The translations under genes were made by a program, and so were the position numbers. A model generated the notes under the pieces. The model worked only from the letters and a program-made list of their open reading frames with translations. It made no database searches and was not told where the DNA came from. From a virus (Duplodnaviria > Caudoviricetes), in IMG/VR virus record IMGVR_UViG_3300024297_000001: a stretch of 64,000 bases of DNA. One strand, 5' to 3'. This document shows, one piece after another, positions 4,865 through 29,436 of this stretch (within the stretch, counting starts at the first letter, position 1; each line of letters starts with the position of its first letter).

Positions 4865-5209
4865 ATGGACGAGAAACTATCAAAAGCCTTAGAATTTGGA
4901 AACTATTCTGCAACTCTTAATAACCAAAGAAGAATGTTGAAAGAAAAGTTTGCTACAGAGTCAATGTATTTCTTTGCAGGTGGACAATTTACAATTACTA
5001 AAGAGTTGATTAACTATGTTTACACATTAAAATCAACAGAGCAAGATTCATTTGTATTAATTGATGATACAGATACTCCGATCTTAATTGAAGACATATC
5101 AGACTTTTACAATAATATTACAGACAAATACTATGTTGCACTAAACAACTATCACAAAGATTACAGCAAACTTGAAAAAAGTAGATCTGTAGACGGATTG
5201 GTGGAATGA
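4865..5209 (+). CDS. Hypothetical protein (114 aa)
   Basis: Clean ORF after a late box; ATGA overlap with the next gene. Confidence 0.7.
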   Translation: MDEKLSKALEFGNYSATLNNQRRMLKEKFATESMYFFAGGQFTITKELINYVYTLKSTEQDSFVLIDDTDTPILIEDISDFYNNITDKYYVALNNYHKDYSKLEKSRSVDGLVE

Positions 5210-6027
5210 GCAGTGGAGTACTATTATTTGCATTTAATAATGAGCAAGTGGATTATGTATCACAGGCTCAGTACCTTGCAAAAAGAATACGCAAATATTT
5301 AGACTTACCAACTACACTTGTAACAGATGATGTAGAACGTGTTGTAAAATTTTACAACGGAAAAGAAGTGTTTGACGAAATTCTTTCTTCGTCTATAGAA
5401 CAAAAAAATCACAAAACATATCACGACGGAAGTTTATCTAAAAAAGTATTAGAGTTTAAGAACTTTAATAGAAGTGATAGTTACGATATAAGTCCTTATG
5501 ATAGAACTCTTGTGTTAGATACGGACTACATTATAAGTAACGACTTACTTGCACAAGCAATGAAGTTACCACATGAACTAATGATGTATAAAGACAGTAT
5601 GGATATTAGTGGTTGGCGTGATACAAGTGAGTTTAAATTAATTAGTGAAACATCAATAGACTTTTGGTGGGCAACTTGTATTATATTTGACAAGTCAGAA
5701 CGTAATAATGCTTTCTTTGATCTTGTAAAACATATAAAGAAAAATTACGAACACTATCGTAATCTATATCAAGTTACAACAACAGTATTTAGAAATGATA
5801 TTGCATTTAGTATTGCAAATAACATCATGGGTTATACAAAAGAACTGCCGGGCAAAATGGTTTATAGCACAGGCAAAGATATATTACAAGAAATTAAAGA
5901 CGATGAATTAACTTTACTTGTTGAAAAACAAGATCGTGTAGGAGAATATACACTAATAAAGTCAAAAGGTATAAATTTGCATGTAATGAATAAGTTTAGT
6001 TTAGGAAGGGAGATTACAAATGCCTAA
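5206..6027 (+). CDS. GT-A fold glycosyltransferase-like protein
   Basis: GVLLFAFNN...Y...A..LA N-terminus and a TLVLDTDYI DxD motif; paralogous to 6020..6835. Confidence 0.6.
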   Translation: MSSGVLLFAFNNEQVDYVSQAQYLAKRIRKYLDLPTTLVTDDVERVVKFYNGKEVFDEILSSSIEQKNHKTYHDGSLSKKVLEFKNFNRSDSYDISPYDRTLVLDTDYIISNDLLAQAMKLPHELMMYKDSMDISGWRDTSEFKLISETSIDFWWATCIIFDKSERNNAFFDLVKHIKKNYEHYRNLYQVTTTVFRNDIAFSIANNIMGYTKELPGKMVYSTGKDILQEIKDDELTLLVEKQDRVGEYTLIKSKGINLHVMNKFSLGREITNA

Positions 6028-6835
6028 TTTTACCTTCCTTGCACAAAACAGCGAATACAATTACATACGTCAAGCAGAACTATTAGCATTAAGCATTAGG
6101 AAAACTAATCCAGATAGTAAAATTTGTTTAATTACCAACGATGATGTAGAACAAAAAGAATTGTTTGATGACATTGTACCTATACCATGGGAAGATAAAG
6201 CAGAAGAACACAAGTGGAAAGTACAAAACCGTTGGAAGATTTACCATGCTTGTCCATATGATGAAACTTTTGTATTAGACACAGACATGATTGTATGTCA
6301 TGACCTAACACACTGGTGGAACCTAATGCAAAATTACGAAGTTTTTTACACAACAAACGTTACAGATTATAAACAAAGTAAACTTAATGTAACATATTAT
6401 AGAAAAATGTTTGAAGCAAACAACTTACCAGACATTTATGTTGCACTACACTATTTTAAGAAGTCTGACTTTGCAAAAAAGTTTTATGAAGCGTTAGAAT
6501 ACACAATGAAAAATTGGGAAGAGTGTTATACAAAGTATGCACCAAAGAAAATGCAAAAGATTGCCAGTGTAGATGTGTGTACAAGTATTGCAATTAAGAT
6601 GTTAGGTGTAGAAAACAAAGTTACAAACAAGACTTTAGCATTTCCTACGTTCGTTCATATGAAGCCTTATGCACAAACTTGGAATACACAAACAAAGAAG
6701 TGGCAAGATCGTGTAGGTTGTTTTGTTAATGACGATGCACAGTTAAGAGTAGGCGGGCATTTACAAGACACAGTGTTTCATTATACTGAAAAAGATTTTA
6801 CGGATAGATTTTATGACAGATATGCACAAAGATGA
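6020..6835 (+). CDS. GT-A fold glycosyltransferase-like protein (GT8-like)
   Basis: YIRQAELLALSIRKTNP..KICLIT, TFVLDTDMIV (DxD) and a C-terminal FVHMK/FHY motif. Confidence 0.65.
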   Translation: MPNFTFLAQNSEYNYIRQAELLALSIRKTNPDSKICLITNDDVEQKELFDDIVPIPWEDKAEEHKWKVQNRWKIYHACPYDETFVLDTDMIVCHDLTHWWNLMQNYEVFYTTNVTDYKQSKLNVTYYRKMFEANNLPDIYVALHYFKKSDFAKKFYEALEYTMKNWEECYTKYAPKKMQKIASVDVCTSIAIKMLGVENKVTNKTLAFPTFVHMKPYAQTWNTQTKKWQDRVGCFVNDDAQLRVGGHLQDTVFHYTEKDFTDRFYDRYAQR

Positions 6836-7376
6836 AGTACAAACATATATAGAGTTTGATCCTAAGACAGGAAACATTCAAACTATTACCTCCTATCCTC
6901 AGAACCAACACATAGAAGTTAATCCTGATGATGTAAAAGGATTATTAGATGGCTCAGAAAACTTCTTACACTACAAAGTACAGTTCAACCCAACTTCAAC
7001 CATGTATGAACTTGTCAATGTGTATGATGAAGAACGTTTCGAATACAATGTACACAACAGCATATACAAAGTACCTACAGATATTGAAGCAGACATTAAT
7101 ATTATAAAAAATTACAAAACAAAAACATGGCAACTACAGTTTGGCAAACTATTTTCCAAAACATTAGAAAAGAATAGTGTAACATTACAAACTGTTAAAA
7201 ATTTTAGCGTAGTTGCTAAGAACGATCCTTATAAACTACATAGAACATTACGATTTAATTTAGCAGATACAAATTTAGACTTGCAATTTGATCAAGATGA
7301 TGCTATAATAACACAATACGACTTATATACTAACAAGTTGTTCAACAGTTACAGCACAGGAGTCATTAATGATTAA
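6813..7376 (+). CDS. Hypothetical protein (187 aa)
   Basis: ORF overlapping both neighbours in the operon; no recognised motif. Confidence 0.6.
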   Translation: MTDMHKDEVQTYIEFDPKTGNIQTITSYPQNQHIEVNPDDVKGLLDGSENFLHYKVQFNPTSTMYELVNVYDEERFEYNVHNSIYKVPTDIEADINIIKNYKTKTWQLQFGKLFSKTLEKNSVTLQTVKNFSVVAKNDPYKLHRTLRFNLADTNLDLQFDQDDAIITQYDLYTNKLFNSYSTGVIND

Positions 7377-8498: not shown

Positions 8499-9862
8499 GC
8501 GAAGTAGAAAGAATAAAGCAGATAATGCCAGAGGTCGACAAGATCTCTCCTACCTTCTGCTTGGCTAAATGGCACCACGTAACAATATATTTGCAAACAG
8601 GCGAAACACACAGTTGTTATCACCCAGCACCACATAAGATTCCACTTGAAGGATTAATTGACAATCCAAGTCAACTACACAATACACCGCAAAAGAAACA
8701 AGAACGTAAACAAATGCTTGAAGGCGAAAAGCCAAGCGGTTGTCAATACTGTTGGAATATTGAATGTATGGGTAAAGACTATATTAGTGATAGGCATATT
8801 AAAACAGCAAGTATATACACACCTAAACGTATTGAAGAAATAAAAAGTAATCCATGGGATTATAATATTAATCCAGAATACATTGAAATAAATTTTAGTA
8901 ATGAATGTAATTTTAAATGCGGTTACTGCCATCCTAAGTTTAGCAGTAGATACTATAACGAAATTAAAAAAGAAGGTCCATATACAGATGTATCTGCACA
9001 CCGTAATGACATTGATTGGTTTGAATTATATGAAGAAGAAACTAATCCTTATGTAGAAGCATGGTGGAAGTGGTGGCCAGAAGTTAGTAAGACACTAAAC
9101 ATCTTACGTGTTACAGGCGGCGAACCTTTAATGCACAAAAGTACTTGGCGTTTGTTTGACGAACTTGAAGCAAATCCTAAACCACATATTCAAATTGAAG
9201 TAAACAGTAACATGGGTGTTAAGGAATCTCTTGTACACAAACTTGTAGAACGTGTAAAAGAACTTAAAGCAAAGAACTGTATAAGAAGTTTCAAATTATA
9301 CACAAGCATAGATACTTGGGGACCTAAAGCAGAATACACAAGACGTGGATTAGATATTGAACTATGGGAAAAGAATTTAGATTACTATCTAACAGAACTT
9401 GGTTATCCTGTAACGTTTATGATTACATTTAACTTGTTTGCTGTAACGAGTTTTGATTTATTGCTTAATAAAATACTTGAATGGCGTAAGAAGTACACAA
9501 GATCTAATGCAGGTGTACAATGGCAAAACATTAGATTTGATACTCCTTATCTAAAAGAGCCAATACAGTTTGACATGAACATATTACCTAAGGATCAGTT
9601 TGTTCCGTACATGACAAGGCACCTACAGTTCATCGGAGACAACGTTGATGACAATGACCGCCATAAGTTTAGTTTGTTGGAGTATGAGCGTTTTAGACGT
9701 GTTGTAGACTATATGCGTACAACTACTTACGATGATAAGAAGTTAGCAATAGGACACAAAACTTTTTATAATTGGTTTACGCAATATGATAAACGTAGTG
9801 GTAGTAGTATTGTTAAAACGTTTCCGGAACTTAAAGAATTTTATGATTCTTGTAGATCTTAG
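8495..9862 (+). CDS. Radical SAM protein with N-terminal twitch/SPASM-like Cys region
   Basis: CNFKCGYC motif, TGGEP, and N-terminal CLAKW...SCYH...CQYC. Confidence 0.9.
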   Translation: MSEVERIKQIMPEVDKISPTFCLAKWHHVTIYLQTGETHSCYHPAPHKIPLEGLIDNPSQLHNTPQKKQERKQMLEGEKPSGCQYCWNIECMGKDYISDRHIKTASIYTPKRIEEIKSNPWDYNINPEYIEINFSNECNFKCGYCHPKFSSRYYNEIKKEGPYTDVSAHRNDIDWFELYEEETNPYVEAWWKWWPEVSKTLNILRVTGGEPLMHKSTWRLFDELEANPKPHIQIEVNSNMGVKESLVHKLVERVKELKAKNCIRSFKLYTSIDTWGPKAEYTRRGLDIELWEKNLDYYLTELGYPVTFMITFNLFAVTSFDLLLNKILEWRKKYTRSNAGVQWQNIRFDTPYLKEPIQFDMNILPKDQFVPYMTRHLQFIGDNVDDNDRHKFSLLEYERFRRVVDYMRTTTYDDKKLAIGHKTFYNWFTQYDKRSGSSIVKTFPELKEFYDSCRS

Positions 9863-10850
9863 AAGCAAGAATTTGATTGTGTGTTAACACAGCATTCATT
9901 TCATTTAACATTTCTTTACAGTCATCAATACTTAATAACTTAATGCTATCTAACAAGTAACGTATTTTGTTCATACGTTTTGTATGATCTTCTTCAGTAT
10001 CGTAACTTTCGTCCCAAGTAAATGTTTTAAATCCTAACTCACGAATGTATTCTAATGTATAAGGTGGTGCAACGCAAACAAAAGGACGTTTATGTATCAT
10101 TGCGTTAACAGTTTTCTCACTAAAGTTTCCTGTAGGCTGATAGAAACGTGTTTCGTTTGCTACAACGCAAAAACTTTTTTCATAGTAAGCAGATAAACTT
10201 GCTGGACCGTTTAGTTGTCCTATAGGCCATTTTTTATGTGCAGGGTCTATACTTTGTAATTCTGTATCAATGCTTAATGCTGGATCACTAAATGCCCAAC
10301 TATAGTAACCTGGTGTATCTTGTAAGTGTTCTATTATTAAACGTCTGTGTAAACTATAACGCCAATTAGGACAAATAAAGTGTTTATCAATATTGTTGTT
10401 AACATTAACAATACCGCCGTTGAATTGATTGCGTAAAAATATATCAAAGCATTTAAGTTCAAACGGATAGTAGTCTATATGTTTGTTTACATTGTAATCA
10501 CAAGTGTATACAGTAATTTCTGCATTTAATTTTTTACTAAATTCTAAAATACTATCTAATTCATCAGCACGTAATTTTTCTCCGCCTTGAAATTCGCTAA
10601 AGAAATCTCTGTTATGCTTTTTACCATCTTCGTATAATGTTAATGGTTCGTACAAATATATGTTAAGTTTTTTAAGTTTCTTTAACATTTTAGGAGTAAG
10701 AGGAAACTTATCAAAGTCTATATTATTTGTACCTGTGTATATAATAAAAGGATCTTTAGGAAACCAATGTTCAAATAGTTCAGTAAACATTGAACCTAAC
10801 TTTGTAGATTTTACAGGAAGGTTACCCCAGAATATATCTTGTTTGAACAT
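9831..10850 (-). CDS. GT-B/exostosin-like glycosyltransferase-like protein
   Basis: C-terminal FCVVANET...FSEKT..AMIHKRPFV...L..LGFKTF.WDESYD resembles GT-B (GT10/GT47-like) nucleotide-binding halves. Confidence 0.45.
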   Translation of the reverse strand: MFKQDIFWGNLPVKSTKLGSMFTELFEHWFPKDPFIIYTGTNNIDFDKFPLTPKMLKKLKKLNIYLYEPLTLYEDGKKHNRDFFSEFQGGEKLRADELDSILEFSKKLNAEITVYTCDYNVNKHIDYYPFELKCFDIFLRNQFNGGIVNVNNNIDKHFICPNWRYSLHRRLIIEHLQDTPGYYSWAFSDPALSIDTELQSIDPAHKKWPIGQLNGPASLSAYYEKSFCVVANETRFYQPTGNFSEKTVNAMIHKRPFVCVAPPYTLEYIRELGFKTFTWDESYDTEEDHTKRMNKIRYLLDSIKLLSIDDCKEMLNEMNAVLTHNQILASKIYKNHKIL

Positions 10851-11344
10851 TACCAGTAAGTGCCGGTGATTTGTAAAGTGTATCTTGGATCAACTCCAAT
10901 GTTGCTGGCCGCATGTGGAGTATCAGGTTGCCATAAAACATATTCACCTGCTTTCCAATTTACAAATGCTTTGCTATCTACTTCAAAGTAGTGTCCTGGT
11001 TTCCAGTCTTCTAAGAAAACAATAGCACGTCTTACTTCGTTACGTTCTTTGTTAAACACTTTACAATATGTATTATAATGATCAACGTGTGTAGGCATGA
11101 TATCTAACGTATCCATTTTGTAAAATACAAAACCAGGATTATGTAAATTAAGTAATTGTGCTACTTGAATTGCATAGTCAGGCATTGTATTACGACTGTC
11201 ATACATTTTGCCTGTTGTATTTTCATGCGTATAGCCTTGCTTACGCCAAGCGTCAGACTCAGCACCTGTAATAGGTTGTCTAACGTAATTGAAGTATTTG
11301 TATCCTTCGTCCCATAATACAGGACATTTACCTTTAGTCCACAT
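10850..11344 (-). CDS. 2OG-Fe(II) oxygenase/cupin
   Basis: PTHVD (HxD) ... PHAASN (distal His) ... RYTLQIT. Confidence 0.7.
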   Translation of the reverse strand: MWTKGKCPVLWDEGYKYFNYVRQPITGAESDAWRKQGYTHENTTGKMYDSRNTMPDYAIQVAQLLNLHNPGFVFYKMDTLDIMPTHVDHYNTYCKVFNKERNEVRRAIVFLEDWKPGHYFEVDSKAFVNWKAGEYVLWQPDTPHAASNIGVDPRYTLQITGTYW

Positions 11345-12302
11345 CTCTTTTTGTATCCAATGTTACGCAGTGAAATCCACCGCCAAGTGTACGTTGATGT
11401 CGCATTGGTAACATAGCACACTCTATTCCTTGGTGCTCAAGAAGGTGTCTTAGATCCTCTTGGTGTTCTTCTAATGCAACTAACTTTGTATTTACACTAA
11501 ACAAGTTCATGTTAATCCACGTACTTGCATTACACCATTTAGGATAGTGGCCAATGTCTACAGGTTCAGGACACCATATAATATCCCAATTTCTAAATGG
11601 CTCAGGTAAATCTTCTCTTACTTTTATTCTACTTGGATTAACAAGTAATAACCCTTCACGTAAAAATGCAACAGTACTGTCAATATGCATGTAACTATAA
11701 ACATTTTGTAATAGGTTTACTTTAGCAGTAGCACCTAAGGCACCTTGTAATAAATTTGCACCTAACTTGTTTGCACTATTACTAACCAAGTATAACAGTT
11801 GGTCGTTTGCACGAATTATATTCGCGGCATCAAAAGCAGGACTGTATTCATTAAGTGCTAAAATATCTTTATTGCCAATACATTCTTTATTGTATAATTG
11901 ACTTTCGTTGAAGCAACGTATTTCTTTTGGGTTATCTAAATGATCTTCAAATGCTCTCCACTCGCCTTTTCTTGCACGTATAGGCATTGGTGTAGCAAGT
12001 GTTAGGTTACCATGTATAAACACACTGTCTCGAGGACAGTAATTATAGTAATGACAATCTGTTTTCTCTGGACGTACAACTTCTACACTTTCTGCTTGTA
12101 AAAATTTTACAAATGTTTCTAAGTCTTCATTTGCTTCTTCAATAACTTTACTTGGGTAAGGACCTTTGATAATTTCTGTTTCGTCTTTTTTATCTGCAAA
12201 ATTAACACAACGTAAACTAATATCTATATCATAAGGTATCTTGGCTTTGTCTGCAATGCCAACAATTACTTTTCTAAGTTGTCCCCATTCGTTTGTGTTC
12301 AT
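11334..12302 (-). CDS. Amidinotransferase (AGAT/StrB1-like)
   Basis: NEWGQLRKVIVG, CPRD, FDAAN (Asp), MHIDST (His) and GGGFHCVTLD (Cys) give the full pentein catalytic triad. Confidence 0.9.
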   Translation of the reverse strand: MNTNEWGQLRKVIVGIADKAKIPYDIDISLRCVNFADKKDETEIIKGPYPSKVIEEANEDLETFVKFLQAESVEVVRPEKTDCHYYNYCPRDSVFIHGNLTLATPMPIRARKGEWRAFEDHLDNPKEIRCFNESQLYNKECIGNKDILALNEYSPAFDAANIIRANDQLLYLVSNSANKLGANLLQGALGATAKVNLLQNVYSYMHIDSTVAFLREGLLLVNPSRIKVREDLPEPFRNWDIIWCPEPVDIGHYPKWCNASTWINMNLFSVNTKLVALEEHQEDLRHLLEHQGIECAMLPMRHQRTLGGGFHCVTLDTKRDVD

Positions 12303-12883
12303 TTAAAAACCTTCATGTCTGGAAGATATGGATAATCATTACTGCTCCATTCCTTTGTTGGTTCAGTAACGTTTTCTAATTTTTCAATACCAAGTTGTGC
12401 AGTTTCTGGAGTCATATAATAATGATATCCTATGTATTGAATGTCTTGTTCGCCCCATGGCTTATCATCTGTTCTACCATCATGTGCCATTGCTTTTAAT
12501 ACTGCATAGTCTGTTTCATTAGGACATAATATTGCACCGCCTCTACCTAAACTTAACATTTTCTTATGTTGAAAACTCAAACACTTATAGGTGTTAGGCA
12601 TGTAACTATTACGTTTGAAACTAACAGCACCGTCTATAATTCTTGTACCACCTAATACATATTCTTCATTCCAAGAAGCATCAACAAACTCCCAATCAAT
12701 GTTTAACTTCATTAATGTAAATGGAATACTAATATACGTTCTTGTAGGTATCTTTACGTGGTTAGGCTTTAGATATCGTAAACAAAGTTCAATAGAATGG
12801 GTACAACTATCCGTTGCAACGGCAAATGGTGCATTATAATACTCTGCAATGCGTTTTTCGAACTCTTTCACGGTTTCAAACAT
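12299..12883 (-). CDS. Short DegT/DnrJ/EryC1/StrS-family PLP aminotransferase
   Basis: FEKRIAEY...ATDSCT, IIDGA, LSFQHKKMLSLGRGGAI (Schiff-base Lys region), GYHYYMT; about 194 aa. Start placed at ATG 12883. Confidence 0.8.
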   Translation of the reverse strand: MFETVKEFEKRIAEYYNAPFAVATDSCTHSIELCLRYLKPNHVKIPTRTYISIPFTLMKLNIDWEFVDASWNEEYVLGGTRIIDGAVSFKRNSYMPNTYKCLSFQHKKMLSLGRGGAILCPNETDYAVLKAMAHDGRTDDKPWGEQDIQYIGYHYYMTPETAQLGIEKLENVTEPTKEWSSNDYPYLPDMKVFK

Positions 12884-12888
12884 ACACA

Positions 12889-12896
12889 TATTTATA
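12889..12896 (-). promoter_or_regulatory. Perfect T4 late box TATAAATA, 5 nt before ATG 12883
   Basis: Plus strand tatttata at 12889-12896; divergent intergenic region. Confidence 0.65.
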
Positions 12897-12905
12897 TGCG
12901 TAGTT

Positions 12906-22327: not shown

Positions 22328-22575
22328 CAAACGTAACACGCAAAGATGCATATAGAGTTTTTTGGTTAGTAAAAGGTCACTTTAATGCAACAGAAGATTG
22401 TATCTTTGATTGTTATGATAGTTATTTTAAAAGAGTTTGGTACATGGAAGAAACATATTTACATGAAGAAGGTTTTGAAGAAGCATACGCAAAGGTAACA
22501 AACACATATACTCAACGTGCTTGGGACAGAACAGTTGGTTATGGAACAGTGCCAGAGGAATACAAATGCGAATAG
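22324..22575 (+). CDS. Hypothetical protein (83 aa)
   Basis: ORF overlapping both neighbours. Confidence 0.55.
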   Translation: MTNVTRKDAYRVFWLVKGHFNATEDCIFDCYDSYFKRVWYMEETYLHEEGFEEAYAKVTNTYTQRAWDRTVGYGTVPEEYKCE

Positions 22576-23114
22576 TTGTAACAGGTAATCCTAAGTATGA
22601 AGGATTATGCTCAGGTATATGGGAAGCCTACAGTCGTAATCAAGTAGAATTTATTGGTAGATGGAATGACTGGGATCTTACAGATGCTGACGCAGTAGCA
22701 GAATACGTAAAAGATCATAATGTATTTGTAAACAGTCAATACGGTCCTAATGGCGAACAAGTAGAATTGTTACGTAAGGTATATGAAAAGTTTAATGGTG
22801 AACACATTATTAATATTTCAAGTACAACAAGTTATTGGGGTGACGGTTATAATCCAGGCGACTATCTTAAAAACAAAACTGAACTTGATGAATTAAGTAA
22901 GAAGTATTCACAGTACGGAACATTTGGTAGTAGCAAAATTCGTGTAAGCAATATTGCGTTTGGTCAACTTGCATCACAAACACAATTAGATAAAAGCACT
23001 AATAATAAAATTAGTTTACTTGAAGCAGGTAAACTTGTTAAATGGGTAATTGATAGTCCACGTAGTTACAACTTACACTATATGGCACTTGATCCTATAC
23101 AAAGAGATCTTTAA
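22566..23114 (+). CDS. Short-chain dehydrogenase/reductase-like protein
   Basis: MRIVVTGN, FVNS, IINISS, YLKNK (YxxxK); paralog of 20838. Confidence 0.65.
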   Translation: MRIVVTGNPKYEGLCSGIWEAYSRNQVEFIGRWNDWDLTDADAVAEYVKDHNVFVNSQYGPNGEQVELLRKVYEKFNGEHIINISSTTSYWGDGYNPGDYLKNKTELDELSKKYSQYGTFGSSKIRVSNIAFGQLASQTQLDKSTNNKISLLEAGKLVKWVIDSPRSYNLHYMALDPIQRDL

Positions 23115-24213
23115 GTTCCGGACAAAAATTTAAAACACTTGTATCTCTAATCTTATCTAAATCCTTAGTATAGTTTACAAACATATCTAATAGTTTACTA
23201 TTGTTTTGTTCGTATGTTATGTTAGGCAACTTATGTTTAATGTTGTGTAATATTTCATTAGGCAATACACGTGGATTCAAATAGGCAGGTTGTGCTACAA
23301 CATTATTAAAGTATATACTCCAATTATCTTTTTTGTTAGCATCAAACCAATCTTGTATTTTATCCAAGTGTGAAATGTTATATGCCATTACAGTTACAGC
23401 AATAATAATTCTATCAAAGTCATATTGTTTTAAATTATCATTTAGTTGTTCAAACGTAAAGTTCTTTCCACCTCTAATGTATTCATACAATCCATCAGTA
23501 CCTTCAACACTTACAGTCCATTTAGTTTCGCCATAATGTCTTGCAAGTTCTTGTACTTCCTCATCAACGATCGTACCATTCGTAGTCCAGTCAAGTGTAA
23601 CATTTTTTGCAACTCCTAAGTCTATAAACTTCTGCAATATCTTTTTGTTTGCAGGTTCCATATAAGGCTCTCCGCCTTTAATACTAAGATAACGTAACCC
23701 CATAAACGGAGTAGGATCTTCAAATAGTCTTTGTATTATTTGTTCACTTTTATTAACATATCCAAACTCTGGATTGTCAATTCTTCTATGATATGGGTTA
23801 CCATTTTTTGCAAGTTTCAATTCGTCCTTGACCCAAGCACTTGAATTGATTCCATCGCACATACGGCATTTCAAATTACAAATATTACTCATATTGAACT
23901 CCAAAAATTTGATATCGTGGAAGTTTTTTGAGTAATCATTATTGGATCCTTCAAGCATAGGATTCAAAATATCACGGAAGAATAATCTTCGGCTATGACC
24001 TACTGTAGCCTCTTTTAAAGCACATTGTTGGCACTCGGGCGGTAACACTCCATTACGGATACTATCCTTTGTGTATGACGCTGTAAATGCGTTTAAGACG
24101 GTGTTTAAGGGCTCTTGTAGCACGTTTCCGTAGCGGTTTGTGTACACACCATCGGGTACAATATCGCCGTTAAAACGTACCAAAATACTATGCCAAGGTG
24201 CGTAACATTTCAT
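23095..24213 (-). CDS. Radical SAM protein with N-terminal twitch domain
   Basis: MKCYAPW...NGDIVP...CQQC, then CNLKCRMC and KGGEP. Confidence 0.9.
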   Translation of the reverse strand: MKCYAPWHSILVRFNGDIVPDGVYTNRYGNVLQEPLNTVLNAFTASYTKDSIRNGVLPPECQQCALKEATVGHSRRLFFRDILNPMLEGSNNDYSKNFHDIKFLEFNMSNICNLKCRMCDGINSSAWVKDELKLAKNGNPYHRRIDNPEFGYVNKSEQIIQRLFEDPTPFMGLRYLSIKGGEPYMEPANKKILQKFIDLGVAKNVTLDWTTNGTIVDEEVQELARHYGETKWTVSVEGTDGLYEYIRGGKNFTFEQLNDNLKQYDFDRIIIAVTVMAYNISHLDKIQDWFDANKKDNWSIYFNNVVAQPAYLNPRVLPNEILHNIKHKLPNITYEQNNSKLLDMFVNYTKDLDKIRDTSVLNFCPELKDLFV

Positions 24214-24652
24214 CGAATTTCTCTCCAAAAGCAGACCTTAAATCGCTTTCCAATTTATCAAAAACCACATTGGGTTGATACACACCTACATTGTCCCAAT
24301 CAATTAATTCATAGGAATCACCCTGTACAATAATGTTACTGAGTACCCAATCTCCGTGTGCAAATGGTTGTGTTTCATTTATGTTCTGTAAACAAAAGTC
24401 GTATATGCTTTTTACAAATTCAGATGTGTGCGGTAGTGTGTTTGCTACAGTGCCTTCGATAATTTTAGTATCAATAAACATTCTGCCACCTTCAACACCA
24501 TGATTAATAATGTAACCAGGACGCACTTCTTCCATTATATCAATATGGTCGTCAAGCCATTCTTGATTTGTAAAGTCCCATTGCTTACGATAAAAGTTTG
24601 CACCTTTGTAAACACGTCTTAGTTTTTCTTTATTTTCCTTTATTAATTCCAT
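24188..24652 (-). CDS. Minimal APH/choline-kinase-like phosphotransferase
   Basis: AHGDWVLSNII (Brenner HGDxxxxN motif) and LIDWD (metal-binding DxD/DFG equivalent). Confidence 0.7.
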   Translation of the reverse strand: MELIKENKEKLRRVYKGANFYRKQWDFTNQEWLDDHIDIMEEVRPGYIINHGVEGGRMFIDTKIIEGTVANTLPHTSEFVKSIYDFCLQNINETQPFAHGDWVLSNIIVQGDSYELIDWDNVGVYQPNVVFDKLESDLRSAFGEKFDEMLRTLA

Positions 24653-25682
24653 ATGCTTCTGCAACTTCAGGAATGTAATCCTGTATGTGGCATCCTCTTA
24701 ATTTATCAAATGTTTTTATCCAATGTAAAAATGCATTTTGTTGTACTTGATCTGGTTCTTGGTTTACCCAATACTTAAATTTTTCTGGCGAAAACTTTTT
24801 AATTGTATCAGGTGCATTCTTTGAATCAAAGTATGTAGGATGAAAAAGTAAATTATCAAACACATCAAAGTCATTTGTTTTTGCCCATGCAACAATATCA
24901 TTGTAATTATGTAAGTTCATTATTTGTATAGTTGGACCTACACTTTTATATTTTACAAATTCTGCCCAACGTAACATATTTGTTTCTACAGTTTTCCAAT
25001 CACTTCCCCAACGTATGTAATCATTTACTTTACCTATACCGTCAATACTAAAACACATATTAACAGTATCGAAACGTTTTAGTTCTTCATATACATTAGG
25101 ATTAATAATTGTAGCATTAGTATTAAATCTTATTTCAACACTGTTATCTAACTTCTTAAGAAACTTATGTAAGCCTCTTACCATCATAGGTTCGCCACCT
25201 GTTAAGTACACTTCTCTAAGTTCAGGTAAACTTGCAAGGTAATCTCCACGTTCTTCTGTGTACCAATCGTAATTAGGAAACTGTTCATTACCCCAAGGCG
25301 ATTCCATACCTTTTGCAATTAGTTCTTTATGATCCTGATTAACACCGCTTGATGTTGCAGGGTAACACATAGTACACTTTAAATTACAGTTACTACCAAA
25401 ACGTAAATCAAGATGACTTACACCAGGCCCGTATGGTCTTGGTTTTGTACGTTGACTACCTTCACCGGACGCTTCTTGTATTTCGCATTTTTTACAAGCC
25501 TCTGGGAATTCATTATTATCAAACTTTTGAACTGCGTCTTTAAACACTTTACTTTCACGCCATTCTTCTATAGTGTGTGTTTGAATGTTTTCTTTGTTTG
25601 TAGGTTCGTTACTAATACAACACAGACGAAACTCGCCAGAAGTTCTAATGCAAACTTGATGATCTAAATATTTACACTTCAC
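24630..25682 (-). CDS. Radical SAM protein with N-terminal twitch domain
   Basis: KCKYLD...SGEFRLCC...CKKC, then CNLKCTMC and TGGEP. Confidence 0.9.
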   Translation of the reverse strand: MKCKYLDHQVCIRTSGEFRLCCISNEPTNKENIQTHTIEEWRESKVFKDAVQKFDNNEFPEACKKCEIQEASGEGSQRTKPRPYGPGVSHLDLRFGSNCNLKCTMCYPATSSGVNQDHKELIAKGMESPWGNEQFPNYDWYTEERGDYLASLPELREVYLTGGEPMMVRGLHKFLKKLDNSVEIRFNTNATIINPNVYEELKRFDTVNMCFSIDGIGKVNDYIRWGSDWKTVETNMLRWAEFVKYKSVGPTIQIMNLHNYNDIVAWAKTNDFDVFDNLLFHPTYFDSKNAPDTIKKFSPEKFKYWVNQEPDQVQQNAFLHWIKTFDKLRGCHIQDYIPEVAEAYGINKGK

Positions 25683-26658
25683 CGCAAGTTACCTCACATA
25701 TTTTAAATCTATTGTCACTTGGATGATTTAGTATATCGCTTTCAAGTATTTCTTCTAATGGCATATTATTAACATTAGGCCATTCTACACTGTTACATTC
25801 TTTTGCATAAGGACTATCAGGATTTTTAGCATAACGATCACTTAACAAATAGCAACAAGGAAACACTTCGCCTGTATGACTTATTTGTATTTTTTGTTTT
25901 TTCTTCCACTTACAAGTTATACAACCTTTATCAAATCCTTTTTCAATCAAACCTTTTACACGTTTTACATTATCTAACTTACTTGTATCATATGCAATGG
26001 TACGTGCTTGTTCTTTTTTAGTTGCTTTAAAAGTTTCTACTGCTTCATTAATAACACTATCAATAGCAGTAAAAGTATAACCACCATTAATGTCAAAAAC
26101 TTTGAAACCCATGTCTTTGCTTAATTCTTCTGCTTGTTCTATTTGATGTTTGTTATGTTCAAACACAAGCATACGCCAACGTGCAATACCACCTGAGTCT
26201 ATAAATGCTTTTGCATTTTCCATAACACTTTTCCATACCACATGTCGTCTATATAAATGATTAGTATCTTCCAATCCGTCTATGCTAAAGGTAATAATTG
26301 CTTGAGGGAAGCCACTTAAAATTTGTGCTAACATTCTATATAAATTAGGTTTACCTATACCACCATTAGTGTGTATCATAATTTTACATTTTAATTTTTT
26401 TCTTGCATACTCTAATGCAAAAGGTAAATTAGGATTCATAATAGGATCGCCATAAGATCCATTAAAAATTATTTCATCAATTCCTTTAGCATTGTCAACA
26501 ATGTTCTTCCAAGTGTCCATATCCATATGACCAAGAGGCATGTTAGGATTGACTTTTACTCCGTCAATATTCCGTGAGCAGTTACCGCACATAGCATTAC
26601 AATGGCTCGTGAAGTCTACTACAAGTGTCTTTAAGTCCTTTTTTCGTACGAATGGCAT
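25672..26658 (-). CDS. Radical SAM protein with C-terminal twitch/SPASM domain
   Basis: CNAMCGNC, FSIDGLEDTNHLYR, C...ISHTGEVFPCC...CEVTC. Start placed at ATG 26658. Confidence 0.9.
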   Translation of the reverse strand: MPFVRKKDLKTLVVDFTSHCNAMCGNCSRNIDGVKVNPNMPLGHMDMDTWKNIVDNAKGIDEIIFNGSYGDPIMNPNLPFALEYARKKLKCKIMIHTNGGIGKPNLYRMLAQILSGFPQAIITFSIDGLEDTNHLYRRHVVWKSVMENAKAFIDSGGIARWRMLVFEHNKHQIEQAEELSKDMGFKVFDINGGYTFTAIDSVINEAVETFKATKKEQARTIAYDTSKLDNVKRVKGLIEKGFDKGCITCKWKKKQKIQISHTGEVFPCCYLLSDRYAKNPDSPYAKECNSVEWPNVNNMPLEEILESDILNHPSDNRFKICEVTCGEV

Positions 26659-26663
26659 CATAG

Positions 26664-26703: not shown

Positions 26704-26711
26704 GGTAAATA
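26704..26711 (+). promoter_or_regulatory. Late-type box GGTAAATA, 5 nt before ATG 26717
   Basis: GGTAAATA-TGAGT-ATG; divergent partner of 26664-26671. Confidence 0.55.
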
Positions 26712-26716
26712 TGAGT

Positions 26717-27433
26717 ATGCAGGAATTAGAAAAATACCATAGCGAACATGGCATCCTGAAGCAAGAATTATACCCAGATACATTTGATCCGAAGTGGTTA
26801 GTAATGGAAAGCGGTTGGGGTTATTTTCATCTTAGTGCTTTAGATAACCAACCATGGAAAGAAATGCACAAAGAAGCAGAAGCACTTGCTGATAAGTTTC
26901 ATAGTCATAGAGAAGATAGTTATGGCAAAGGTTGGAAGAGTCTAACACTACATGGACTAAATGAAGATACACAAAGTTTAAATCAATATGGCGATAGAGA
27001 TAAAGTTCTTGAAGAATTAGATTGGACTTGGGTAGCAGACGAATGTCCTGTTACTAAAAAGTTTTTAACAACAGTATGGCCTGCAGAGTTTTTAAATCGT
27101 GTAAGGTTTATGTTACTTGAACCAGGCGGTTACATACTACCACATCAAGATCGTAAAGACGAAGAAAAGCGTTTGAGTGTTTGTAACATCAGTCTAAACA
27201 ATCCAGAAGAATGTCAATTTGTTTACAAAGACAAAGGCATTGTTCCTTTCAAAGACGAAGGTAGTGCGTTCTTAATGGATATTAGTAACGTACACAGTGT
27301 TTGGAATCGTAGCGACAAACCAAGAATACATATGATTATACATTACGAACTTGGTAGACGTACAAGAGATATGTTTTATACATTAAGGGAAAGTTTCTAC
27401 ACTAATAGGAGAACACTTGATGGATTGGAATAG
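26717..27433 (+). CDS. 2OG-Fe(II) oxygenase (Asp/Asn beta-hydroxylase-like)
   Basis: GWKSLTLHG, LLEPGGYILPHQD (HxD), SNVHSVWN...RIHMI. Confidence 0.8.
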   Translation: MQELEKYHSEHGILKQELYPDTFDPKWLVMESGWGYFHLSALDNQPWKEMHKEAEALADKFHSHREDSYGKGWKSLTLHGLNEDTQSLNQYGDRDKVLEELDWTWVADECPVTKKFLTTVWPAEFLNRVRFMLLEPGGYILPHQDRKDEEKRLSVCNISLNNPEECQFVYKDKGIVPFKDEGSAFLMDISNVHSVWNRSDKPRIHMIIHYELGRRTRDMFYTLRESFYTNRRTLDGLE

Positions 27434-28874
27434 TCTTACAGTTGATCGTTATTACGAAGATCTAAATTCTAATAACGAAGTTGGTGTAGGTATATTAGAC
27501 ATCACACGAGATATCGATAACGAATTTGTTGCCAAACGTACATTCGATATGACTTACTTCTACATTAACAGAATGATTAAAATGAACTTATGTTCATATG
27601 TAGGACGACATAAGACTGTAAAAGAAATATTAGAAAATGCAATTATAGAAGGTAAGAAATATTGCATGGTGGCATGCCAAGGATTACTATTATATAGAGG
27701 TCCAAGTTTAGTGCAGAAAAGTGTTGCATACGCAGAAAACAATCCGCAGTTTTTTGTTATAGGACATATTATGGACAAGCAAGGCCAACATCATTATCTA
27801 ACCAAAGGTGCTTATCCTGGATTACATAGACAATACTTGTTTGTAAATTTAAACAAATGGGTTGAATTAGGACAACCAGAGTTTGATGAACTTGGTGTGT
27901 TTACTGACCGACCAAGAAACTACCGCAATGTAGAATACAGTGAAGAAAAGGTTCACAGTGAATATACACCTAAGTGGGTAAAAGGTGCAGAAGGTTATAT
28001 GCAGAGTACTATTACTGCTGATGGAAGTAACTGGATACATCTTGCCGCAGAAAATGATATTACTATTGACAATCTTGATAACGATATGCGAGAATGTAAA
28101 GTATTTTTATATCCTTACAACAAGCCAGACATACTTGAAAAGGTATGGTTAGATAAAACTAATGACAAACTTGTTGATCAATTAAACTACAGTCAACGTG
28201 CATGGATACGTAAATTAGGATATCAAGAAGAAATAGAAAAGAACAGAGTGTATGCTTTTAACACAGAAAGATTAAGTGGAGAAGGTGTACGTACAAGTAC
28301 TTTTATAGATCATTTCTTTAGTGCGGCCGCAGGATTTAAACCACTTGCAATATTAAATGCAAACGGCTTTCATGAAGGTACTACAGTACATTACTTTGAT
28401 TGGTGCGAAGCAAGTTTAAACTATAAGAAGCATTTATTAGAAACTTGGGACGGTTATGATTTGGATAAATGGCTCTTAGAAAACGATTTACAGTATAATT
28501 TCAGTAGCACTTACCGTGCCAACTATAAACAATTCTGGGAACAAGAACTAAAAGAGTTCGGTGGAAACCTTGCTTTTCAAAGATTATGGTCAAGGTATAG
28601 AGATTTAAAACATGAGTTTCATGTAATTGATATTGTACAAGACAGTGATAAACTGTTTGATATAATAGATAATGTACACGGAACAAAAGTATTATGGACT
28701 ACAAACATATGGTCAAGCGAAATGCTACAATGGAATATAGAACCAGAAGAACTTGAAAAGCATTACACAAAATTTAAAAGCAGAGTAAAAAATCTCGTAG
28801 TATACGGACACGATTACTGCGGTATTGATTTAAACGATAGTGTCAAAGGAAACTATACACATGTCAAATTTTAG
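27420..28874 (+). CDS. Hypothetical two-domain protein (possible GT-A-like N-terminus, SAM-binding-like C-terminus)
   Basis: 484-aa ORF; C-terminal SAAAGFKP...VHYFDWCEASL loosely resembles a degenerate Rossmann SAM site. Confidence 0.5.
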   Translation: MDWNSLTVDRYYEDLNSNNEVGVGILDITRDIDNEFVAKRTFDMTYFYINRMIKMNLCSYVGRHKTVKEILENAIIEGKKYCMVACQGLLLYRGPSLVQKSVAYAENNPQFFVIGHIMDKQGQHHYLTKGAYPGLHRQYLFVNLNKWVELGQPEFDELGVFTDRPRNYRNVEYSEEKVHSEYTPKWVKGAEGYMQSTITADGSNWIHLAAENDITIDNLDNDMRECKVFLYPYNKPDILEKVWLDKTNDKLVDQLNYSQRAWIRKLGYQEEIEKNRVYAFNTERLSGEGVRTSTFIDHFFSAAAGFKPLAILNANGFHEGTTVHYFDWCEASLNYKKHLLETWDGYDLDKWLLENDLQYNFSSTYRANYKQFWEQELKEFGGNLAFQRLWSRYRDLKHEFHVIDIVQDSDKLFDIIDNVHGTKVLWTTNIWSSEMLQWNIEPEELEKHYTKFKSRVKNLVVYGHDYCGIDLNDSVKGNYTHVKF

Positions 28875-29436
28875 AATAGAACGGGTTGGCAGATATTGTA
28901 GAATAGCAGATTGGCAAGTAAATGTTGACCTAACAGATTATTATAAAAGAGCAAAAGAAAAAGGCTTTGTTAATAATGCAAGTCGTGAAATGCTTATTGA
29001 TTGTTTTAATAATGAAAGCCAAATGCACTTGTTCTTACTTTACGAAGATGATACAATTATTGGAACACAGGTGTTACATACGTTTCCAGAGATGGGACCT
29101 AATTGTTGGAGAGTAGGAAGAACAAGTTTACTTGTACCACCATTAGGCAAAGGCAAAAGTATTATTACAAAGTTTCAAAATCATACAGATCAATTTTTAC
29201 ATCCTGCCGTTATTAAATTTGTATCAGAACGCAAAGGTGAATTGTATTCAACTACAAATATGAATCCAGAAGCCAAACAAAATCAATCACACTTAATATA
29301 TTTTCCTTTAATAGAAAAGATGGGTGTAGTTGATAAAGTTGGAGATATGGATTACAGATATACCAAACAGTCAGTTTGGAAATTTAACTTTAATCGTTTT
29401 TGGGAATTGTATAACTTATTTCCTAAATGGAATTAA
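28861..29436 (+). CDS. Hypothetical protein, possibly GNAT-like
   Basis: LFLLYEDDTIIGTQVLH...CWRVGRT pattern resembles GNAT beta-strands; weak. Confidence 0.4.
   Translation: MSNFRIERVGRYCRIADWQVNVDLTDYYKRAKEKGFVNNASREMLIDCFNNESQMHLFLLYEDDTIIGTQVLHTFPEMGPNCWRVGRTSLLVPPLGKGKSIITKFQNHTDQFLHPAVIKFVSERKGELYSTTNMNPEAKQNQSHLIYFPLIEKMGVVDKVGDMDYRYTKQSVWKFNFNRFWELYNLFPKWN

Follow-up and report, generated by a model that had tools for sequence, protein, structure and literature searches.

Why would a tailed phage carry a long block of tailoring enzymes beside its tail-fibre genes? The question is raised by a window of 64,000 nucleotides (the whole stretch of DNA analysed) from IMG/VR record IMGVR_UViG_3300024297_000001. 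In the original prediction, the block was read as a late-expressed pathway for a heavily modified glycan or a small molecule. Genes are named below by their first coordinate.

Organisation and conservation of the island

Based on an ORF scan with a threshold of 80 aa or more, positions 4865-29436 hold 31 ORFs with nearly no intergenic space, so that the contiguous cluster predicted at this site stands and its count of about 29 genes becomes 31. The island is flanked by the following genes:

308-2392, 2426-3904 and 3918-4838, plus strand: three tail-fibre/virion structural genes (PHROG tail fibre and virion structural matches)
29433-30743, minus strand: fibre-like protein of the right flank (weak Mtd_N and minor-tail matches)

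Structural genes had been expected on both sides; this is borne out on the left by tail and tail-fibre PHROG matches, while the right-hand gene is weakly fibre-like. The left-flank proteins (308..4838), two of which are paralogs (308 and 2426), have a high Ser/Thr content (18-22%) and could be the acceptors of a glycan. Gene 29433 is preceded by a Shine-Dalgarno site and, about 38 nt upstream, a TAAATAC box; its homologs are 29-84% identical and in relatives are separated from the island by a variable spacer of 0.6-8 kb. In relatives, the genes upstream of the island include one for a giant protein of 4907 aa and one for a Collar/Gp10_C protein.

The island backbone is found in more than 200 marine viral contigs, on scaffolds of up to about 330 kb. 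The phage carrying it is uncultured, ocean-wide and giant. A synteny survey of marine viral contigs, proposed with the original prediction, finds the backbone recurring and its position behind the fibre genes kept clade-wide (80/80 and 54/54 fetched marine loci), with a middle region that is hypervariable and cassette-like among relatives. Across every island gene, dN/dS lies between 0.06 and 0.26, indicating purifying selection. Loss of catalytic residues had been named as evidence against a working system; the motifs looked at are intact, namely CxxxCxxC (8/8), DxD, the amidinotransferase Cys-His-Asp and the SDR Ser-Tyr-Lys. With its families identified, its motifs kept and all genes under purifying selection, the predicted enzyme mix is upheld.

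Glycosyltransferase-like proteins

The glycosyltransferase-like proteins and the smaller genes among them are:

4865-5209, plus strand: 114-aa conserved protein, first in operon 1 (no Pfam or PHROG match)
5206-6027 and 6020-6835, plus strand: two GT8/glycogenin-like GT-A glycosyltransferases (joint profile, invariant DxD)
6813-7376, plus strand: 187-aa protein (no family match)
7369-8256, plus strand: GT-A-fold (GT2-like) glycosyltransferase-like protein (AF2 model and fold matches)
8253-8498, plus strand: 81-aa membrane protein, accessory, in 13 loci (hydrophobic segment; weak NMN_transporter match, E=0.0014)
9831-10850, minus strand: GT10-like protein, a lead (Atlas score 0.80)
14965-15654, plus strand: GT-A paralog of 7369 (33% paralogy)
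27417-28874, plus strand: 485-aa two-domain conserved protein (virus-only family)

About five such proteins had been proposed; four are supported as GT-A-like (5206, 6020, 7369 and 14965), with 9831 and 27417 as leads. The joint profile of 5206 and 6020, which are 27% paralogs, matches glycogenin (GT8) with E=1.5e-5. The AF2 model of 7369 (pLDDT 76) matches GT-A folds in Foldseek and VIA (best VIA Z 9.2), and its D62 and D64 are invariant. Its family, which has no Pfam entry, is very large and virus-dominated, with at least 8000 metagenome homologs, and its Atlas matches are viral clusters. The model of 27417 (pLDDT 62) gives weak matches, GT-A-like for the N-terminal half, whose possible role as a glycosyltransferase is a lead only, and Rossmann-like for the C-terminal half; in some viruses this family is fused to the Asp/Asn-hydroxylase-type oxygenase. 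Gene 4865 is kept in 57 loci. Gene 6813 is conserved in position, but poorly in sequence (median identity 29% across loci), with a dN/dS of 0.09 among close relatives.

All island enzymes are predicted to be soluble, the sole predicted membrane segment being that of the 8253 protein. A Pfam scan and membrane prediction found no Wzx, Wzy, ABC exporter or polyprenyl-phosphate transferase among the island ORFs.

Nucleotide-sugar and other tailoring enzymes

12981-14165, plus strand: UDP-sugar 6-dehydrogenase-family enzyme (UDPG_MGDP_dh N-terminal and central domains above cut-off)
16588-17340, plus strand: truncated UDP-sugar dehydrogenase of 250 aa, without the UDP-binding domain, accessory (Pfam)
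12299-12889, minus strand: mini-DegT aminotransferase, 196 aa (Pfam E=2.9e-16)
11334-12302, minus strand: StrB1-type amidinotransferase (full-length profile match to StrB1, 1bwd, E=4e-68)
10850-11344, minus strand: cupin-like HxD...H protein (motif only)
20838-21428, plus strand: SDR-like protein (SDR profile)
22521..23114, plus strand: SDR, start likely near 22566 (SDR profile)
17935-18552, plus strand: Asp/Asn-hydroxylase-type 2OG oxygenase (Asp_Arg_Hydrox 24.0 bits, cut-off 22.6)
26540-27433, plus strand: Asp/Asn-hydroxylase-type oxygenase, operon start 26711, ATG box 26717 (Asp_Arg_Hydrox E=1.1e-14)
17330-17938, plus strand: Rossmann/methyltransferase-like protein, core (Methyltransf_25 E=0.022)
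14165-14977, plus strand: possible SGNH hydrolase (motifs only)
24188-24664, minus strand: APH-like mini-kinase (weak, E=0.006 and 0.06)
28840-29436, plus strand: GNAT/FeeM-like protein (FeeM E=0.008)
From 22324, plus strand: 83-aa protein, accessory (no family match)

Both predicted UDP-sugar dehydrogenases are present, 12981 at full length with the catalytic Cys motif GGSCHPRD and 16588 in truncated form, the latter missing from a 98%-identical relative (L002). The amidinotransferase, the DegT aminotransferase (though short) and the two SDRs were likewise recovered; the joint profile of 20838 and 22521 matches SDRs with E=3e-10, and the Ser, Tyr and Lys residues are invariant. The three well-conserved genes of the accessory minus-strand cassette 9831..12889 occur in 27-28 of the 80 loci. 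For two of the three 2OG/cupin oxygenases (17935 and 26540) the Asp_Arg_Hydrox cut-off is exceeded, while 10850 shows an HxD...H motif alone. The genes called methyltransferase, SGNH protein, kinase, GNAT and transporter exist, but their identities come from sub-threshold matches or motifs, and a PDB profile search with 17330 gave no match.

Radical SAM enzymes

8495-9862, plus strand: N-twitch radical SAM NF033640, core (NCBIfam 309.5 bits, cut-off 170)
15632-16591, plus strand: radical SAM without SPASM domain (Pfam)
18552-19550, plus strand: radical SAM with C-terminal SPASM (Pfam)
19519-20847, plus strand: N-twitch radical SAM (NF033640, 419 bits)
21383-22327, plus strand: radical SAM, paralog of 15632 (Pfam, paralogy)
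23095-24228, minus strand: N-twitch radical SAM (Pfam, NCBIfam)
24630-25682, minus strand: N-twitch radical SAM (Pfam, NCBIfam)
25672-26661, minus strand: radical SAM with SPASM (Pfam)

Exactly eight ORFs exceed the Pfam PF04055 cut-off, the number originally proposed, and CxxxCxxC is present in all. Half of them belong to the uncharacterised N-terminal-twitch family NF033640, and in an alignment of these four enzymes and relatives the N-terminal auxiliary-cluster Cys are invariant. Gene 8495 is the most conserved of the island, with relatives at 65-100% identity on 238 IMG/VR contigs. C-H bonds of sugars or cyclitols are the targets of the characterised twitch enzymes BtrN, HygY and NeoN; radical SAM/SPASM enzymes are mostly peptide modifiers.

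Promoters and timing

Four of the five island operons begin with TAAATA-N5-ATG, a promoter-like motif that resembles a T4 late box and whose placement would fit leaderless mRNA. It is found at 4865 (operon 1), 26658 (minus-strand operon 23095..26661, syntenic across relatives) and 26717 (plus-strand operon 26711..29436), and the minus-strand cassette 9831..12889 begins with TATAAATA-N5-ATG, a box kept in 27/27 homologs. TAAATA boxes are non-random in the window, and the TAAATA(C) core also lies upstream of two fibre genes. The switch to another promoter type is marked by one feature:

33710-33777, minus strand: transcription-programme boundary (strong terminator 33777-33748, then sigma70 promoter 33738-33710)

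No 12/12 sigma70 promoter occurs in 1-33 kb, and perfect copies are located at 33738-33710 and 39107-39079, in agreement with the claim that this consensus is confined to the right of 33 kb. The late-type promoters proposed for the island are supported in part: late-like boxes are used in this phage, but late timing does not hold generally, since in 12 of 35 distinct relatives the region upstream of the first operon carries a perfect TTGACA-N17-TATAAT with a Shine-Dalgarno site instead, which suggests early expression there.

Comparison with known phages and bacteria

An eight-gene core is also present in the distant soil Ralstonia jumbo phage RsoM2USA. There, as in the marine island, baseplate or tail-fibre genes immediately precede it, and it adjoins tail sheath and structural ORFs. 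Its order is a fibre-like gene, homologs of 4865 (ORF354), 5206 and 6020 (ORF353 and ORF352 as a pair), a gene at the 6813 position that is unrelated to the window's 6813, and then homologs of 7369, 8495, 14965 (ORF348) and 17330 (ORF347). ORF349 and ORF202 are 36-37% identical to 8495, and ORF355, directly upstream of the core, shares the N-terminal domain of 2426. In a Pseudobdellovibrionaceae MAG, a similar cluster (radical SAM, 2OG, SDR, DegT) is found with none of the window's glycosyltransferase families nearby.

According to PMC7029224, pelagimyophages and cyanomyophages carry a fibre-adjacent 'host recognition cluster' with GT8, UDP-glucose dehydrogenase, radical SAM cassettes and an Asp/Asn hydroxylase. 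The island is a variant of this published kind. The claim that no characterised phage pathway is of this complexity can be kept for the word 'characterised', but the same kind of island had already been described.

Possible function

On the most economical reading the product is sugar-based, and a heavily tailored glycan, made in the cytoplasm and placed on fibre or baseplate proteins, is favoured with a probability somewhat short of even. Soluble cytoplasmic enzymes would make unusual nucleotide-sugar donors: uronic acids would come from the UDP-sugar dehydrogenases and keto-sugars from oxidoreduction by SDR-type and twitch radical SAM enzymes, the latter sugars being transaminated by the mini-DegT enzyme and, in some strains, the amine amidinated by the StrB1-type enzyme. 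A short glycan would be assembled by the GT-A enzymes, four to six in number (the GT8/glycogenin-like pair, the two GT2-like proteins and possibly the GT10-like and 485-aa proteins), and be tailored by the eight radical SAMs, two or three Fe/2OG oxygenases and putative methyl- and acyl-transferases. It would be put directly onto concurrently made virion proteins, the likeliest acceptors being the fibre/baseplate proteins encoded immediately upstream. We infer the chemistry of each radical SAM, the step order, the acceptor and the timing.

The glycosyltransferase and nucleotide-sugar families, intact motifs, selection, fibre synteny, shared boxes and lack of export genes all count for such a virion glycan. 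Direct cytoplasmic glycosylation of proteins by sets of GT8 and GT2 enzymes is established for glycogenin and for streptococcal serine-rich repeat proteins, and in mycobacteriophages, chloroviruses and mimiviruses virus-encoded enzymes add the glycans of virion proteins. Against it, radical SAM/SPASM enzymes most often modify peptides, the sigma70-type first-operon promoters of some relatives suggest early expression in these, and the radical SAM set may act on something other than a glycosyltransferase-built glycan, because the MAG cluster lacks the window's glycosyltransferases nearby.

The alternative that survives best, though unlikely, is remodelling of the host surface: the enzymes would supply modified sugar donors and attach new sugars to lipid-linked intermediates of the host's O-antigen, capsule or LOS, or change sugars already there, with flipping and ligation by host machinery. 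If true, superinfection would be blocked or progeny would not be trapped on cell debris. An initiating transferase, flippase, polymerase, ligase and Gtr-type membrane protein are all missing in the Pfam and membrane scans; many O-antigen glycosyltransferases are also soluble, however, which makes the lack of membrane proteins compatible with action on host lipid-linked intermediates. The hypervariable middle recalls O-antigen locus dynamics, and early-type promoters occur in about one-third of distinct relatives, whereas operons and fibre genes share late-like boxes here and late expression would be ill-timed for exclusion. The core also stays beside fibre genes even in the soil Ralstonia phage, which has a quite different host envelope. 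Analogous pelagimyophage islands have been read as modifying the host O-chain (PMC7029224), which by analogy favours remodelling and speaks against a virion glycan.

Clearly less probable is a small molecule, diffusible or intracellular (guanidino-sugar, aminoglycoside-like or cofactor-like), as the joint product of the radical SAMs, oxygenases, aminotransferase and amidinotransferase; it would be directed at host defences or at competitors. The amidinotransferase is closer to StrB1-type enzymes (233 bits) than to glycine amidinotransferase (137 bits), the DegT-type enzyme and APH-like mini-kinase lie alongside, the MAG cluster does without the phage glycosyltransferases, and a small membrane protein (8253) is present. 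However, the amidinotransferase cassette is accessory (28/80 loci), no exporter was found besides the accessory 81-aa protein, and the four to six glycosyltransferases and the conserved fibre-gene position would be left unexplained. The aminocyclitol flavour of the original prediction was not retained either: no cyclitol-forming enzyme, and neither an inositol-phosphate synthase nor a 2-deoxy-scyllo-inosose synthase, was found among the Pfam-scanned island ORFs.

Slightly lower again is the probability that radical SAM/SPASM and Asp/Asn-hydroxylase-type enzymes act on virion proteins directly, with fibre proteins cross-linked, epimerised or hydroxylated and glycosylation secondary. PF05118 members hydroxylate protein Asp/Asn residues, hydroxylases of this type are in the island, and the island adjoins fibre genes. 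The top NCBIfam matches of 18552 and 25672 are peptide or metalloenzyme maturases, but far below cut-offs; a precursor-like small peptide, RiPP recognition element or protease was not found in the island, and the nucleotide-sugar enzymes and glycosyltransferases would still need a glycan role. Decoration of modified phage-DNA bases with a complex glycan is very improbable: a passage in PMC12619734, citing Pyle et al. 2024, has phage GT-A and GT-B enzymes building glycans on 5-hydroxymethylpyrimidines, and some relatives have early-type first-operon promoters, but the island lies in the structural region with late-like boxes in this phage, and no thymidylate-synthase-family hydroxymethylase was found in the contigs of five relatives (35-75% complete).

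The phage that carries the island is best read as a member of an uncultured marine jumbo myovirus lineage with a genome of at least about 330 kb, and the island itself as a fibre-adjacent accessory module of that lineage.

Phage lineage and island anatomy

The DNA polymerase of the window (54722-57397, minus strand) shares 44-51% identity with those of Sinorhizobium phage Phosso, Agrobacterium phage Atu_ph07 and the E. coli 121Q/Rak2-like jumbo phages. Relatives of the radical SAM protein 8495 (genes are named by their start coordinate) occur at 65-100% identity on 238 IMG/VR contigs, and those of 27417, which encodes a 485-aa protein, on 57. The same region is carried by Tara Oceans scaffolds of 215 and 327 kb, the longest listed being 338.5 kb, and one 268-kb relative is rated 75% complete by CheckV. 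The source is a widespread, uncultured lineage of marine jumbo myoviruses with genomes of at least about 330 kb. The lineage treated in the 'moraphage' paper is another one than that of the window.

The ORF listing of the island (4865-29436) contains 31 close-packed or overlapping ORFs, in agreement with the contiguity, though not the exact number (about 29), given in the original prediction. At the nucleotide level, megablast matched the island to none of 50,697 deposited phage records. Mapping of the window proteins onto 134 loci fetched from relatives revealed an invariant backbone with variable cassettes, in the following order.

Order of backbone genes and variable stretches in the relatives
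Tail-fibre genes
4865, 5206, 6020, 6813, 7369, (8253) and 8495
Variable stretch of 5-6 kb
14965, 15632, 17330, 18552 and 19519
21383 and 22521, followed on the minus strand by 23095, 24188, 24630 and 25672
26540 and 27417
Variable stretch of 0.6-8 kb
Fibre-like gene and conserved genes up to the DUF2201 peptidase/MoxR ATPase pair

This last pair, a DUF2201 metallopeptidase/VWA protein and a MoxR-type ATPase, lies to the right of the island in the window (32380-34872, minus strand). The minus-strand cassette at 9831-12889, which encodes a putative DegT-type aminotransferase (12299), an amidinotransferase (11334), a cupin-like protein (10850) and a GT10-like protein (9831), occurs in some 28 of the 80 loci and is accessory. 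In the Tara scaffolds, the region comes after the genes of a 4907-aa protein, in which carbohydrate-binding and FG-GAP signatures were recognised, of a Collar/Gp10_C baseplate protein and of the fibres. Every island gene has a dN/dS of 0.06-0.26 relative to relatives of 75-97% identity, which speaks against the loss of catalytic residues that the original prediction had named as a possible objection.

Among the 50,697 deposited phages, the core was found in a single one, the soil phage Ralstonia RsoM2USA. Its ORF354-347 include homologs, in the same order, of 4865, 5206, 6020, 7369, 8495, 14965 and 17330, while the position of 6813 is taken by an unrelated gene. Ahead of these ORFs lies ORF355, which has an N-terminal domain in common with fibre protein 2426, and the tail sheath and structural proteins confirmed by proteomics are encoded next to them. 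Because this eight-gene core stays beside a fibre gene across such a distance, its position argues for a function coupled with the virion.

Radical SAM enzymes

Eight island proteins match PF04055 with 32.8-48.0 bits (Pfam gathering cut-off 29.5) and the CxxxCxxC motif was read in all eight, exactly the number of radical SAM enzymes originally predicted. All-against-all BLAST divides them into three subfamilies, i.e. four N-twitch enzymes, two with a C-terminal SPASM domain (18552 and 25672) and two short ones (15632 and 21383). The N-twitch enzymes were assigned to NF033640, the 'twitch domain-containing radical SAM' family of NCBIfam, for which a whole-protein score of at least 170 bits and an auxiliary Cys cluster on the N-terminal side of the radical SAM core were required. 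With 309.5 (8495), 419.3 (19519), 217.8 (23095) and 223.2 bits (24630), all four are members, and C14, C90 and C93 are invariant in their alignment, upstream of CxxxCxxC. We know of no NF033640 member with a characterised reaction, and literature searches for 'N-terminal twitch' and for radical SAM together with jumbo phage and glycosyltransferase returned nothing specific. The closest likeness is to the twitch/SPASM carbohydrate enzymes BtrN, HygY, NeoN and AprD4, which have an auxiliary Cys cluster and a sugar-enzyme context as well; however, the auxiliary domain is N-terminal in the four phage enzymes and not C-terminal.

The N-twitch paralogs diverge too far for their joint alignment to serve in a genome scan; a scan with a single protein led to one bacterial MAG. 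This Pseudobdellovibrionaceae genome encodes ten NF033640 paralogs above the cut-off (loci L137-L144, G001). It also has an N-twitch and SPASM radical SAM cluster with a 2OG hydroxylase, an SDR and a full-length DegT protein, at 40-50% identity to the phage genes; the cluster adjoins the housekeeping genes ndk and rodZ and is without the glycosyltransferases of the window.

A RiPP cluster, a type to which the island does not conform, was defined by a precursor peptide beside a radical SAM/SPASM maturase that passes its family cut-off. The best maturase-family scores in the island were 45-65 bits against cut-offs of at least 340, and neither a Cys-rich nor a repeat precursor core was found in the small ORFs (83 and 114 aa).

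Glycosyltransferase-like proteins

The paralogs 5206 and 6020 have no Glyco_transf_8 match in Pfam; their profile, built from 26 sequences, matches glycogenin (GT8) over the N-terminal 100 residues (E = 1.5e-5), with D105 and D107 (DxD) invariant. For 7369, no match was obtained in Pfam, PHROG or NCBIfam, and a PDB profile search gave nothing significant. Its AF2 model (pLDDT 76) matches GT2-like clusters in AFDB and reaches a VIA Z-score of 9.2 to B4GALNT1 and STIV A197, while the first Foldseek match in the PDB is, weakly, PBCV-1 A64R, an enzyme that glycosylates the capsid (E = 1.2e-3). As nucleotidyltransferases score almost equally in the VIA comparison (Z 8.4-8.7), the predicted GT-A assignment of 7369 and its 33% paralog 14965 is kept to the level of the fold. 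D62 and D64 are invariant in 7369, whose family has at least 8000 metagenomic members, all of them unnamed. The GT10-like label of 9831 reflects a sub-threshold match or motif, and PDB profile searches for 9831 and 27417 gave nothing significant. For 27417 no fold is claimed, given a model pLDDT of 62 and non-significant PDB matches. The genes 26540 and 27417 overlap (26540-28874), and the Asp/Asn hydroxylase and the 485-aa protein are fused in some viruses (Atlas cluster, 688 aa, 97% with PF05118).

Sugar-nucleotide and other tailoring enzymes

The amidinotransferase 11334 aligns over its full length (residues 3-319) with StrB1 (1bwd; E = 4e-68, 233 bits) and scores 137 bits to glycine amidinotransferase (AGAT). 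With C311, H205 and D91 invariant, it belongs to the StrB1/AGAT family and has a predicted amidinotransferase activity. DegT/DnrJ/EryC1 aminotransferases have a PLP fold of two domains and about 360 aa with a Schiff-base Lys. The neighbouring 12299 (12299-12889, minus strand) has only 196 aa and a DegT match of 60 bits with partial profile coverage; the SF(Q)HKK...GGAI motif with the Lys is present and the C-terminal domain absent. This short form is kept at 64-99% identity in 27 loci. Some relatives have 673 nt extra beside the 12299 homolog.

The UDP-sugar dehydrogenase 12981 exceeds the cut-offs in its N-terminal and central domains, scores 20.1 against a cut-off of 30 in its C-terminal domain, carries the catalytic Cys motif GGSCHPRD and is a full member of its family. 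A second such protein (16588-17340, 250 aa) keeps the catalytic Cys and ends after the central domain; without the UDP-binding C-terminal domain, it does not have the UDP-glucose/GDP-mannose dehydrogenase architecture. It occurs only in the closest relatives and is missing from one that is 98% identical, and is therefore a recent accessory. When 20838 and 22521 were combined with their relatives in one profile, it matched SDRs at E = 3e-10, the Ser, Tyr and Lys residues being invariant; 17935 and 26540 pass the Asp/Asn-hydroxylase model. The labels methyltransferase, SGNH, kinase, GNAT, third oxygenase and small transporter correspond to sub-threshold matches or motifs. PDB profile searches gave nothing significant for 17330, 14165 and 10850, and E = 0.06 at best for the kinase. 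Outside the island, two more 2OG-Fe(II) oxygenases and a nucleotide-sugar epimerase (PHROG 540) are encoded in the early region (36203-36817, 39085-39813 and 52349-53086, all minus strand).

Transcription signals

No 12/12 sigma70 promoter is present left of 33.7 kb, and perfect ones are found at 33.7 kb (33738-33710) and 39.1 kb, at the start of the replication-gene region. The former is accompanied by a strong terminator (33777-33748) in the gap between the DUF2201 and MoxR genes. T4-type late transcription uses TATAAATA at -10, with the late sigma factor gp55 and gp33 encoded in the genome. In the window, TATAAATA is rarer than expected (2 copies versus about 14 from base composition), a perfect copy lying at 12896 on the minus strand, and gp55 was not recognised among the ten window ORFs scanned. 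The arrangement TAAATA-N5-ATG occurs seven times, with nearly no occurrences at other spacings, and six of the seven are real gene starts.

Gene starts with TAAATA-N5-ATG
4865, plus strand
12883, minus strand
26658, minus strand
26717, plus strand
60435, minus strand
61418, minus strand

Four of the five island operons open in this way, and the box is kept in all 27 of the 12299 homologs compared as well as in the divergent 25672/26540 region. The N5 spacing puts the ATG where transcription begins relative to the -10 box of T4 late promoters, so that these genes would give leaderless mRNAs of the T4 late type. At the fibre genes 2426 and 29433 (minus strand), a TAAATAC box lies about 30-38 nt upstream, together with a Shine-Dalgarno site. 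A TATAAATAC box is located 35 nt upstream of 59106-59756 (minus strand), a PHROG 3704 'ferredoxin' (338 bits) without Pfam match or ferredoxin-like Cys pattern, whose label looks unreliable.

A perfect TTGACA-N17-TATAAT with a Shine-Dalgarno site takes the place of the TAAATA box before the first operon in 12 of 35 distinct relatives (ahead of the 4865 homolog in loci L016, L018, L020, L021, L023, L031, L035, L050, L051, L054, L062 and L069). Judged by these boxes, promoters of different classes have replaced one another in a single gene module. The late-type boxes of the original prediction are seen in the window as T4-late-like TAAATA boxes, with no 12/12 sigma70 promoter left of 33.7 kb, but do not extend to these 12 relatives. 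Late timing is plausible for the window phage but, because of the sigma70 promoters in the relatives, no property of the system as a whole. The major capsid gene of relatives sits inside an operon without intergenic space, and its upstream region is uninformative on a late promoter. Contigs from seawater RNA libraries of three studies (runs X1, X3, X4 and X5) align, at 0-3 mismatches, with the fibre genes and with segments of the island, covering parts of 5.4-13.3 kb (window 1-20000 compared). As such contigs are blind to strand, 5' ends and level and DNA carry-over is possible, they were set aside as evidence of expression or timing.

Relation to known systems

According to Zaragoza-Solas et al. 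(2020, PMC7029224), the host recognition cluster (HRC) of pelagimyophages and cyanomyophages holds GT8-type glycosyltransferases, a UDP-glucose dehydrogenase, radical SAM cassettes and an Asp/Asn beta-hydroxylase, its function being inferred only. The HRC is a variable island with glycosyltransferase, LPS-type and radical SAM genes behind the giant baseplate protein and fibres, and the relatives of the window have the same layout after the 4907-aa protein. By architecture, not by homology, the island is of the same kind as the HRC of marine T4-like phages, and such islands have been described before. No deposited pelagiphage or cyanophage record yielded a sequence homolog of the core genes. 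In contrast to the HRC, the island belongs to another lineage, that of jumbo phages (at least about 330 kb) with a polymerase closest to Atu_ph07, Phosso and Rak2-like phages. It contains a conserved eight-gene core in common with a soil phage, is much richer in radical SAM genes of an uncharacterised family, and has both a cassette with a StrB1-type amidinotransferase and leaderless-type TAAATA-N5-ATG starts. In its architecture, the undescribed system of the original prediction is a known kind of island. To our knowledge, no member of its core families is characterised, nor is one of the large families NF033640, the Pfam-less GT-A family (at least 8000 sequences) and the 485-aa family.

Mycobacteriophages (capsid/tail-tube O-glycans), chloroviruses (PBCV-1 A64R) and mimiviruses (fibril clusters) glycosylate structural proteins in the cytoplasm. 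They resemble the island in having their own soluble GT-A and sugar-nucleotide tailoring enzymes, but are without radical SAM enzymes. No relationship to these systems was found at the sequence level.

Proposed function

Glycosylation of the virion, on fibre or baseplate, is the best reading, although we rate it as somewhat short of probable. Uronic acid formation, keto-sugar transamination and amidination would be the identifiable sugar-nucleotide chemistry, followed by four to six putative GT-A transferases and heavy oxidative and radical tailoring. The island enzymes are all predicted to be soluble, the 81-aa 8253 being the only hydrophobic protein, and no Pfam match to a lipid-carrier transferase, flippase, polymerase or exporter was found in the island. 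GT8 and GT2 sets are a known toolkit for direct protein glycosylation in the cytoplasm, and several viruses glycosylate their own structural proteins. It is this combination, together with the linkage to fibre genes, that favours virion glycosylation.

Remodelling of the host envelope, the published guess for the analogous HRC (PMC7029224), agrees with the early promoters in relatives and seems a doubtful explanation here: the initiating transferase, flippase/exporter and polymerase/ligase of an O-antigen or capsule locus (Wzx/Wzy or ABC) are unmatched in Pfam. A small molecule as the product is unlikely. The trio of StrB1, DegT and kinase and the Pseudobdellovibrionaceae cluster without these glycosyltransferases suggest it, and the streptidine branch of streptomycin (StsC-type DegT, APH-type kinase, StrB1) has counterparts in the StrB1-type enzyme, the adjacent DegT-type protein and the APH-like mini-kinase. 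However, the cyclitol-forming enzyme and the phosphatase of that branch were not found in the island, the putative aminotransferase is a 196-aa mini form and the cassette is accessory. The aminocyclitol flavour of the original prediction was not borne out either, as the Pfam families of myo-inositol-1-phosphate synthase and 2-deoxy-scyllo-inosose synthase are absent from the 31 ORFs, where family-less ORFs could hide one; the UDP-sugar dehydrogenases point to sugars over inositol. Direct radical modification of the fibre proteins, with the radical SAM enzymes acting on the polypeptide, is quite unlikely, and DNA hypermodification most improbable, a hydroxymethylase not being found in the contigs (35-75% complete) of five relatives.

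Taking virion glycosylation further, we tentatively propose that N-twitch radical SAM enzymes and their GT-A partners may form an ocean-wide, hitherto uncharacterised viral system that puts a radically tailored glycan, guanidinylated in some strains, on tail fibres, expressed from leaderless late mRNAs. The phages concerned are abundant in ocean metagenomes and homologs of the core genes number in the thousands, while the cultured RsoM2USA, with its eight-gene core, makes the proposal testable at the bench. If true, NF033640 would gain its first function, in carbohydrate C-H chemistry, and abundant marine jumbo phages would be shown to glycosylate their receptor-binding apparatus. A product that decorates the fibres would represent new radical carbohydrate chemistry and would bear on the host range and adsorption of marine phages and on their evasion of glycan-binding defences.
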